Made by a program: the position numbers. Shown one piece after another: positions 3,001 to 6,000 of a DNA stretch of 9,804 nucleotides. Position 1 is the first letter of the stretch. Each line of letters starts with the position of its first letter. Source of the DNA: a virus (taxonomy: Duplodnaviria > Heunggongvirae > Uroviricota > Caudoviricetes); IMG/VR virus record IMGVR_UViG_2531839446_000025, positions 1 to 9,804 of that record. One strand, given 5' to 3'.

Positions 3001-6000
3001 CCGGCAAGAGTCAGTAATTGTCCCTGGTCTTCCTGCAGAACAGTCAGGCGACCACCGCGATTGACATACATCGGCGTTTCGGTGGTGTCTTCTTCGGAAA
3101 TTTTCCCGCGGTTAGTCGGGCGAACATATGAGAGTTTGTGTTTGATTTTCACACGGTTCTCATCAAATGGTTCGATTTCCAGGTTGAGTGAGACCTTACC
3201 TTTGGTTTTCGTGTTCATCACACCGGAAGCGACTTCACTGAGAACTGCGCCGATTTTGGTTTCAAATACGCCGCCGTCCAGCTCCCCGATAAATGCCTGC
3301 ACATCAGTACTGCGTTCGCTAGCCATTTTGCTGTTCCTCATCATATCGACCCTGCAAGGTCGGTTGGTTTCTCCACAAAACAGAGAAGAACACCTGCGGT
3401 GGCAGCCGCCCGGATGGATTGGGTTATGAGCCCGTCGTCCGGTGATGCTCTTCTCTGTTTTGTAAAAAGAGCGGTACCAGCCGGAAGCAAGTGTACAAAC
3501 TGGTACCGCCAAAGCAGTGGCTGTTGTGGTGGGGTTGTCACTCAGGCGTATGGTCAACCTGACAATCCGGTGTCCTCAACGGGGAAAGAGTAACCCCGCC
3601 ATACTTACCGCCGCGCCATTTCGCGGATTACCACAACGCTGAGAGCACTTAGCCAGTTACGGCACCACACTTTGTCGCGGCTCCATAAATGCCCTCATCG
3701 TTGCACCCTGGTCTCTTCCCAGGCGTCAAACCGAATCGCCACGCTGGTTAGGCGTCTTATCAGCATCATCATTGACTTGCACATTCCGGCTACCTGGTTT
3801 GTTTGCCCGAGCAAGGAGTGGATTGTCCCCTTTAACGTCCCCAGACCGCTAACGACGCATGTGCCATACGCCGTGTTACAACCAAATTTTGTTAGTACCT
3901 TGTTTGTTTGTCTGGAAAGAAAGATAAAATGAAGTTGCGCATTATGCAAGTGTTTTTGTTGCGAGATATGCAATTTAAAGGGTAATGAAAAGCCACCTTT
4001 GGGTGGCTAATTGATGAGGAGGTAAGGGTTAATTGTGTCGCTTAAGGGTTTGTGACTGGCTGATTAAGACCTTTCCAAAGACCATAAACCGGTGTTCATT
4101 TTCGCTGGTAATTCCCCATTCACGGTAAATCTGGTTATCAGAAATCACCAGTAGTTTGTCAGGTATCATTTGCAGTCGTTTGACATAAATTTTATCATCA
4201 AAACCAAATACATAGATACCATCTCCATCAAACTGATTGATACTGACATCAACGAAGATGAGATCTCCTGGCTCAATGGTTGGACACATACTGTCCCCAC
4301 GAACGTTGATAACTTTAATGTGATTGGCTGGCCGTCCGCCAAACATCGATACAGCATTATCAGTTCTGTATTCAATGGCATGAATCACATCAATGACATC
4401 ACCGCCCTGGATAAGGCCATTTCCCGCACTGGCACTGACATCCAGCATTTCAATACGGAATACATCCTTCACCTGCGCAACATCCTCACTAATACTGTTT
4501 TTACATACAGTATTACTTTTGACGTCTGAGGTAAAGAGATCAGCAATATCAACACCTAAGCTCCTGGCAATATTACTCAGGGCTTGTTCAGTGAATTGTT
4601 TCTGCTTACCTGTTTCCAGGCGTGAGATATTCGCCGCATCCACTCCTATTGCTTCAGCGAGATCGGCGATTTTCATGTTCTTCGCCTGGCGAAGTTGTCT
4701 GACTCGGTTTCCTATGTTCATGCGTTTATTACATTTCTTTATTGCGCGTTAAGCAAATCAACTTGCGCAAAATATTTGCGTGAAATAATATGCTCATCAC
4801 GCAATATGTGGAGGTCATATGCAATCACCATTACGGAATGTGCGTAAGGCGCACGGATTTACTTTGCAGCATGTTGCTGCTGGCGTTCAGGTCAATCCAG
4901 CGACGCTGAGTCGTATTGAAAGACTGGAACAAATTCCATCTATCGATCTTGCAGAACGTCTGGCCAATTTTTTTAAGGGTGAAATCAGCGAAATGCAGAT
5001 TCTTTATCCGGCACGTTTTCAATCTAGCCAAAACCAGAATGGGTTTAAACCACAGGAACAGGAGGTAAGCCGTGGGTAATCATCACTGGAAAGTGGAAAA
5101 ACAGCCTGAGTGGTACGTGAAAGCTGTCAGAAAAACTATCGCGGCGTTGCCGGGGGGTTACGCTGAAGCTGCTGAGTGGCTGGATGTAACAGAGAACGCA
5201 TTATTTAACCGCCTTCGTGCCGATGGCGATCAGATTTTCCCGCTGGGATGGGCAATGATTTTACAACGTGCTGGTGGCACTCACTTCATTGCTGACGCTG
5301 TGGCGCAGTCTGCAAATGGCGTCTTTGTGTCTCTTCCTGACGTCGAGGATGTGGACAATGCCGATATTAACCAGCGTTTACTGGAAGTCATTGAACAGAT
5401 CGGCAGTTATTCAAAACAGATTCGTTCGGCAATCGAAGACGGTGTAGTGGAACCGCATGAGAAGACAGCAATTAACGACGAGCTGTACCTCTCAATTTCG
5501 AAGCTGCAGGAGCATGCAGCACTTGTCTACAAAATTTTTTGCGTTTCAGAAAGTAATGACGCCCGCGAGTGTGCAGCTCCGGGCGTCGTGGCGTCGATTG
5601 CTTCTGGTTGTGGAGAAACTAACGCATGAACAGTTTAACAACACACTACCGTCGCTCGCAACTGATTGCGCTTCCTGTACCGGGTGGAAAAGCGAAGGTG
5701 GAGTATTGCTATGCAGTAAATGTACCAGGTGACAGGGAAATTGTAACCCACAGCTTTGCTGAGTGGGCTGTGGGTGATTTCAACCGGCAGAAGGAGACAG
5801 TCCTTTGCGACAAGTTAACCGCTGGTTCAAAGATCACTACGGAGTGCCCGTCAGAGTCATTCGTTGGGAGCCGGAAACACAACGGGTTATCTACCTCCGC
5901 GAAGGCTATGAGCATGAGTGCTTCAGCCCGCTCGAACAGTTTCGTCGTAAATTCAGGGAAATAGAGGTCGGTCATGAGCACTAAATTAACCGGCTATGTA

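Follow-up and report, generated by a model that had tools for sequence, protein, structure and literature searches.

The window analysed here is the whole 9,804-nt DNA of IMG/VR virus record IMGVR_UViG_2531839446_000025 (positions 1 to 9,804; Caudoviricetes). On its minus strand, in the untranslated leader between a candidate leftward promoter (PL) and yfdP, lies a hairpin, termed hairpin W, that is a genuine conserved intrinsic terminator. We consider it rather likely that this terminator is leaky, ending a small RNA (sRNA) of ~174 nt and insulating yfdP-xis-int, with the read-through RNA processed in a long stem beyond it. Elements of this kind are already known, and the sequence of the hairpin is in print. 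The window covers the immunity region of a lambdoid prophage of Escherichia coli and matches many sequenced strains at 100% identity. The leader and the gene that follows it comprise:

3921..3973, minus strand: candidate PL, assigned by reading the sequence, with a pair of operator-like repeats
3631..3887, minus strand: module A, a structured leader RNA (~250 nt) with a 5' domain (3887-3705) followed by a long helix (~3706-3633)
3523..3637, minus strand: block B, predicted sRNA body, a stem GUUGUGG/CCACAAC around three hairpins
3462..3510, minus strand: hairpin W, intrinsic terminator and sRNA 3' hairpin, with arms at 3510-3500 and 3480-3471 and a U-tract at 3468-3464
3370..3468, minus strand: domain D, a ~25-bp stem running from the U-tract and enclosing two hairpins (inverted repeat I3), proposed site of ribonuclease III (RNase III) cleavage
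2964..3326, minus strand: yfdP, first gene past the terminator (RefSeq annotation of the identical locus and PHROG matches)

Hairpin W reads 5'-GGCGGUACCAG (3510-3500), a 19-nt loop, CUGGUACCGC (3480-3471), U and CUUUUUACA (3469-3461) on the minus strand. Its 10 perfect pairs extend to 13 with G-U pairs in RNAfold (minimum free energy -21.2 kcal/mol, z -3.65), and none of 200 dinucleotide shuffles folded as well. The tail CUUUUUA begins directly after the stem, with the RNA 3' end predicted near 3465. Scored for hairpin energy and tail, W (-20.7, -3.34) matched the characterised DicF terminator (-15.1, -3.37) and fell inside the range of rrnB T1, with a U-tract weaker than those of trpA t or lambda tR2. 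The original prediction of a terminator-type hairpin between PL and yfdP was borne out by these 13 pairs, the z score and the direct U-run, and free-energy scoring did not reject it; the spacing to the yfdP ATG (3326), put there at ~135 nt, measured ~136 nt. A simple terminator scan missed the hairpin because its loop limit was 8 nt. W together with the downstream domain is present in 2,478 of 5,426 complete E. coli genomes. The loop reads ACACUUGCUUCC in the window and CCCUUGCUUCC in some other copies. Variants alter mainly the loop or preserve pairing (A>G giving G-U; G>A giving U-A), far beyond chance.

An RNA ending in this hairpin has been reported from E. coli K1 RS218, where a mEp460-like prophage encodes the 193-nt sRNA-17, defined by 5' and 3' rapid amplification of cDNA ends (RACE) and Northern blotting (Sun et al. 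2020, PMC7719688). The RNA was mapped onto the window via the published primers and phage mEp460, in which the primer pair spans 194 nt. In the available parts of that paper, the 32-nt RACE-based 3'-end primer, ending ...GUACACUUGCUUCCGGCUGGUACCGCUCUUUU, equals 3465-3496 exactly and a 39-nt homology arm equals 3476-3514 exactly. The quantitative PCR (qPCR) primers also match the window, as does the fragment described as the sRNA-17 promoter, which corresponds to module A. No match in the window was obtained for the sRNA-17 5' primer or Northern probe listed there; the sRNA-17 body (5' end CGUUGUGGUGAAUGCGCAGG..., ~120 nt) is replaced by the Qin-type block B. The 3' hairpin and U-tract are identical between the two loci, and both carry module A upstream and yfdP downstream. 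Judged by its sequence, the window allele is a chimera of a DicF-precursor block and the sRNA-17 hairpin, a 'degenerative sRNA-17' in the terms of the published sections we cite.

For this identical hairpin copy, the same portions of PMC7719688 put the 3' terminus of the RNA within the U-tract and show yfdP to be almost silent: sRNA-17 was visible by Northern blot in the uninduced RS218 lysogen, with 0.49 reads for yfdP. Replacement of the sRNA-17 body by a cat cassette, using homology arms that leave the hairpin intact, brought yfdP to 47 reads and yfdR from 0 to 8.5, as expected of a terminator that insulates yfdP yet can be passed. The qPCR amplicon covers module A and the sRNA-17 body, and a longer precursor therefore exists. 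The authors reported no Rfam homologue for sRNA-17, and the sections available make no link to DicF, PL-operon termination or a structured precursor.

The second relative of the leader is the dicB operon of the K-12 Qin prophage. By megablast of the leader against the 5,426 E. coli genomes, positions 3531-3637 (107 nt) are 93.5% identical to a Qin segment between ydfC and dicB; this homology stops just upstream of dicF, and hairpin W fills the dicF position. W and DicF have in common UUUGGCGGUAyCAGUUU on the 5' side and CCGC(C/U)CUUUUUA on the 3' side. Both follow the 107-nt block immediately, in a leftward operon under repressor control, and both show the same hairpin base, a five-U tail and a long stem beginning at the U-tract. 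They differ in that W lacks the 5' seed UUUCUGGUGAC, its stem is perfect whereas that of DicF is interrupted, the loop sequences are distinct, and the downstream gene is yfdP for W and dicB for DicF. The Rfam DicF model RF00039 (threshold 48 bits) gave no match in the window at E<=1 and none in the leader at E<=10, against 76.7 bits for the Qin positive control and 17.9 bits for a sister allele from Superficieibacter. By position, and in part by sequence, W is thus a homologue of DicF that lies outside this curated family. Pairing of W with ftsZ was tried and rejected in a crude test, since the duplex (-24.8 kcal/mol; DicF -38.5) was weaker than 296 of 300 shuffles.

DicF has two origins: early termination gives a 53-nt form, and cutting of read-through dicBF RNA by RNase III gives a 72-nt form. 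Its terminator is passed without a known N to give full-length dicBF RNA, and the downstream gene is expressed via this read-through. The Qin spacer between dicF and dicB (locus L002, 2717-2926) also matched Rfam STnc100, though below threshold (34.4 bits; threshold 47), which suggests that this Salmonella sRNA candidate is a post-terminator domain of the same type.

W and DicF proved to be two members of a larger hairpin family. A survey of the slot in 120 viral contigs, with the shared block as anchor, returned canonical DicF, type W (about a quarter of loci) or several other alleles. All fetched loci together gave ~55 distinct hairpin alleles with 17 different stem cores from 12 enterobacterial genera, with 10-17 pairs, energies of -11.5 to -25.2 kcal/mol and, in W-related alleles, loops of 3-18 nt. 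The family base is UUGGCGG...CCGCC-CUUUUUA: GGCGG/CCGCC and the five-U run are kept in all alleles and the apical parts vary. C/U-rich motifs such as UCCCUUGA and CUCCGUGA recur in the loops.

Beyond the terminator, the five U and the following 20 nt pair with 3394-3370 (UUUUUACAAAACAGAGAAGAGCAUC with GGUGUUCUUCUCUGUUUUGUGGAGA) to form the stem of domain D. The consensus fold of eight sequences from Escherichia, Citrobacter, Kosakonia and Pseudescherichia contains 39 pairs, seven of them compensatory. An analogous stem follows DicF directly in Qin, where RNase III yields the 72-nt form. Domain D exists solely in read-through RNA and is under selection, so read-through must be a normal outcome, and this weakens the case for a required, dedicated antitermination. 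Its hairpin GGG-CUCAUAA-CCC (3433-3421) resembles the anticodon arm of initiator transfer RNA (tRNA-fMet), and in late operons of Klebsiella phages the domain D core sits immediately 3' of tRNA genes. In two of these phages (L005 and L006, ~2501-2551) the GGG-CUCAUAA-CCC hairpin itself was seen immediately past tRNA-Arg and tRNA-Asn genes and may be a relic or a mimic of a tRNA.

In the mechanism we favor, transcription would start at PL, or in the lysogen possibly read through from the repressor gene past its weak terminator. Polymerase would cross the ~250 nt of structured module A and then block B, a predicted four-way junction. Most transcription would halt at hairpin W, and 5' processing at the junction of module A and block B would leave an RNA of ~174 nt (~3638 to 3465); any action of this RNA in trans is likewise a prediction. 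Termination would silence yfdP-yfdQ-yfdR-xis-int in the lysogen. In read-through RNA the U-tract would instead pair downstream within the 25-bp stem, a likely RNase III substrate; cutting there would yield an sRNA extended at its 3' end together with a shortened yfdP mRNA. On full PL derepression, expression of the leftward genes may need nothing beyond read-through, as the dicB operon illustrates. This best model does not call for dedicated antitermination, nor is it at odds with it. The sRNA would resemble 3'ETS-leuZ and SroC, which are terminator hairpins of longer transcripts freed by 5' processing, and the likeness to a tRNA trailer extends to sister loci in which the hairpin directly follows a tRNA-Arg gene. 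Unlike those RNAs, the tRNA slot of the window holds a non-tRNA structured block, and no sponge function or target is known.

Several points weigh against this mechanism. The W loop of 15-19 nt exceeds the 3-8 nt of the short-loop criterion and is followed by only five U, leaving termination efficiency uncertain. That read-through would suffice for xis expression upon induction is a supposition of the model. The transcript evidence belongs to the sRNA-17 copy, and the window allele is instead a chimera of block B and W. The ~95-fold rise of yfdP with the hairpin intact shows that the hairpin can be passed. We take the cat cassette to point toward the hairpin, on the assumption that it is arranged as in the pKD3 cassette. 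In the parts of PMC7719688 available, the RACE 5' end of sRNA-17 was not discriminated as primary or processed, and the authors place its promoter within module A.

The putative PL was assigned from the sequence. Two operator-like 15-nt repeats, TTGCATATCTCGCAA (3973-3959) and TTGCATAATGCGCAA (3949-3935), overlap its -35 element TTGCAT (3949-3944), which is followed by a 17-nt spacer, the -10 element TATCTT (3926-3921) and a start near 3914. The candidate is weak (7/12 consensus matches), and the promoter scan did not list this site. Phages of other immunity have a TTGACA-17-CATAAT promoter at this position, and their homology to the window begins just downstream, at a mosaic breakpoint near ~3893-3902. 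Folded in full, the 589-nt leader has an energy of -225.7 kcal/mol (z -4.1). Its ~590 nt contain no ATG-initiated minus-strand open reading frame (ORF) and no Arg-rich ORF, and the ORFs called mechanically from TTG or GTG had no match to antiterminator PHROG families. No sigma-70-like promoter was listed by the scan on the minus strand between 3470 and 3327. The expectations that the leader encodes no N-sized, Arg-rich protein and that no strong promoter separates the terminator from yfdP were both upheld. Two mechanical ORFs over the hairpin region, 3399-3593 (+) and 3341-3541 (-), matched phrog_3651 (E 5e-38) and phrog_33599 (E 5e-17), families of unknown function that are probably spurious gene calls over conserved non-coding RNA.

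The 5' domain of module A forms four helices with invariant single strands such as GGUAGCCGGAAUGUGCAAG. RNAalifold of 10 sequences returned 63 pairs, nine of them compensatory. In a set of 26 non-redundant sequences drawn from 12 genera of enterobacteria, pairing holds in 97.9% of cells and 10 of 28 pairs change on both sides, a level reached by none of 500 shuffles (slid controls 30-43%). Neither the window nor the leader, module A included, had a relevant match in Rfam; the lone match below E=1, a microRNA model on the replication iterons, was rejected as spurious. The 5' domain was also found between tRNA-Ile and ban in P1 and P7 and in the PL leader of mEp390. Stand-alone units in Uetakevirus, P22-like and other phages consist of a promoter, module A, tRNA-Arg, a DicF-type hairpin and a second terminator. 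SfV carries hairpin W without module A.

The cargo after module A is exchangeable and includes block B, tRNA-Arg(UCU), a mEp460-type body, an SfV type and others. GUUGUGG...CCACAAC closes all non-tRNA versions, and the slot of block B holds tRNA-Arg(UCU) in other phages. In the block B consensus fold, a closing-stem pair is CG in 11 sequences, UA in three and UG in two, changes that are wobble-compatible. Block B was rejected as a recognisable tRNA, as ARAGORN finds none in the window. One cargo type (L180, L247) combines a D-arm-like AGCUCAACGGCGAGCU with a canonical T-arm GCUGGUUCGACUCCAGC, separated by an insert of ~70 nt, and looks like a tRNA-like element uncalled by ARAGORN. Related parts lie immediately past tR' in the late leader of lambda (44787-45009; L262 988-1210): a helix CACAACAGGUAAGAGCAUU...AGUGCUCUUUCCGUUGUG in common with our leader, a block closed by GUUGUGCUGAAU...CAGCACAAC, and then a hairpin followed by CUUUUACAC. 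We know of no function for this lambda segment.

It is an even call whether these parts define an undescribed, widespread class of modular structured phage RNAs, with the hairpin as the 3' module and DicF and sRNA-17 as allelic 3' products. Such a class would, with equal weight for and against, begin with a 5' domain (~180 nt) that covaries and keeps its single strands invariant, and continue with the long helix. That the GUUGUGG...CCACAAC cassette comes next, as tRNA (Arg-UCU), tRNA-like block or another fold, is a similarly balanced proposal. We are just as evenly divided on the remaining order, a DicF-type hairpin with a variable C/U-rich loop and then an RNase III-type stem around an initiator-tRNA-like arm. 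Parts of this layout occur in lambdoid PL leaders, the P1/P7 ban leader, the lambda late leader and the P22-like/Uetakevirus stand-alone units. Release of the tRNA or sRNA cargo could be under the control of the 5' domain, acting either as a platform for processing or by binding a protein or a ligand. We could find no description of module A in the searchable literature, whether under the ban leader of P1 or among GOLLD/ROOL-like RNAs of E. coli, nor any report that links DicF to sRNA-17 or describes the conserved domain upstream or the architecture of read-through and RNase III.

The hairpin could alternatively be a regulated attenuator, with yfdP-xis-int dependent on processive antitermination by a cis-acting leader RNA, as with HK022 put, or by a phage protein from a gene beyond the window. 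A real terminator does lie within a 590-nt untranslated leader with no promoter downstream, and xis depends on this hairpin-bearing transcript. A strongly conserved structured RNA sits just past PL, as putL does in the N-less lambdoid phage HK022, and homologous building blocks occur in the Q-antiterminated late leader of lambda. However, the leader has no similarity to putL, or to the HK022 genome, beyond chance words in a sequence comparison, and no second leader-like copy was found in the rightward operon within the window. Module A, at 250 nt, also differs in size from put, a two-stem element of 70 nt with a similar copy past PR. The best PR-side partner in 4800-9804, candidate I1 (35 nt, 74% complementary), lies inside a gene and was not convincing. 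A module A that rendered RNA polymerase terminator-resistant would leave the two terminators of the stand-alone units without a purpose, the Qin dicB operon passes its homologous terminator without a known N, and SfV has W without module A, all of which make regulated attenuation unlikely.

Likeness to lambda is similarly partial. The window has, as in the N leader, a long untranslated leader with an RNase III-type stem just ahead of the ribosome-binding site of the first gene, and it shares with the late leader the helix, the closed block and the hairpin followed by CUUUUACAC. Unlike lambda it has no N gene, and the lambda late-leader copy lies behind qut/Q, which do not act at PL. The tail CGCUCUUUUUACA was considered as boxA/nut and set aside as a loose likeness, most other alleles reading GCCCUUUUUA. 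No boxB-like hairpin was seen after CGCUCUUUUUACA on reading the sequence, where boxA/boxB were not pattern-searched. The earlier interpretation survives in part. The terminator and the lack of an N ORF and of a promoter stand; a bare attenuator implying antitermination does not, W being a 3' hairpin of the DicF/sRNA-17 family whose DicF homologue is read through without N, and domain D pointing to read-through as normal. A put-like mechanism found no put element at the sequence level and no PR-side copy in the window. Our data leave room for an active antitermination factor whose gene lies beyond the window.

It is improbable that W is mainly a processing or stability element that blocks 3' exonucleases and guides RNase III or RNase E, with 3' ends generated by trimming. 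The conserved structure past the U-tract, the pairing of the U-tract in the read-through fold, the RNase III-generated form of DicF and a loop longer than is typical of terminators would all suit such a role. Against trimming stand the invariant run of five U directly after a GC-rich stem in ~55 alleles, a yfdP that was nearly silent although the RNA upstream was Northern-detectable in the RS218 data available, and the homologous DicF hairpin, an established early terminator.

We give equally little weight to W as a mere operon insulator against repressor-gene read-through in the lysogen, with the released RNA a functionless by-product: the codirectional repressor gene with its weak terminator (7 bp, poor tail), the lack of ftsZ complementarity in W and, in the parts of PMC7719688 available, the lack of a validated direct target for sRNA-17 are countered by sRNA-17 deletion and complementation phenotypes in the same paper, by an RNA body and loops conserved and swapped as cassettes across 12 genera, by the recurrent loop motifs noted above and by the stand-alone promoter-driven copies.

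The minus strand carries, in order, the repressor gene (4721-4029), ~700 nt without an annotated gene, yfdP, yfdQ, yfdR, xis and int, with the repressor gene transcribed codirectionally with the leftward operon. The last four genes were assigned from the RefSeq annotation of the identical locus and PHROG matches:

4029..4721, minus strand: cI-like repressor gene (Pfam HTH_3/HTH_31 and Peptidase_S24, E 6e-19; XRE family regulator in RefSeq)
3991..4008, minus strand: short terminator-like hairpin closing the repressor transcript, AGCCACC-CAAA-GGUGGCU followed by UUUCAUU (terminator scan, 7 pairs)
2074-2898, minus strand: yfdQ
1398-1973, minus strand: yfdR
1109-1369, minus strand: xis
1-1128, minus strand: int

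The hairpin at the repressor end has an energy of -11.3 kcal/mol and a weak tail; SfII and SfV annotations place a putative terminator at the equivalent site. Within xis, just upstream of int, a promoter-like CTGTCA, 16-nt spacer and TATTAT (1149-1176, minus strand) recalls lambda PI and could free int from dependence on hairpin W. The plus strand carries cro-like, CII-like, replication, PerC, LexA-like, RusA and KilA-N genes. Five to six 15-nt iterons (TCAAAATCTGACnCG) at 6262-6384, within the replication-protein gene (5974-6915), are probably an origin of replication.

A leaky terminator of this type would explain how excision and early-left genes are silenced in common N-less lambdoid prophages, with a small RNA made from the same transcript. 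The element is carried by nearly half of complete E. coli genomes. DicF and sRNA-17, hitherto studied separately, are joined as alleles of one locus type, and the reported 'sRNA-17 promoter' is suggested to be a conserved, structured precursor domain. The comparison also brings to light an unannotated RNA domain common to the model phages P1 and lambda, which is testable in existing strains.

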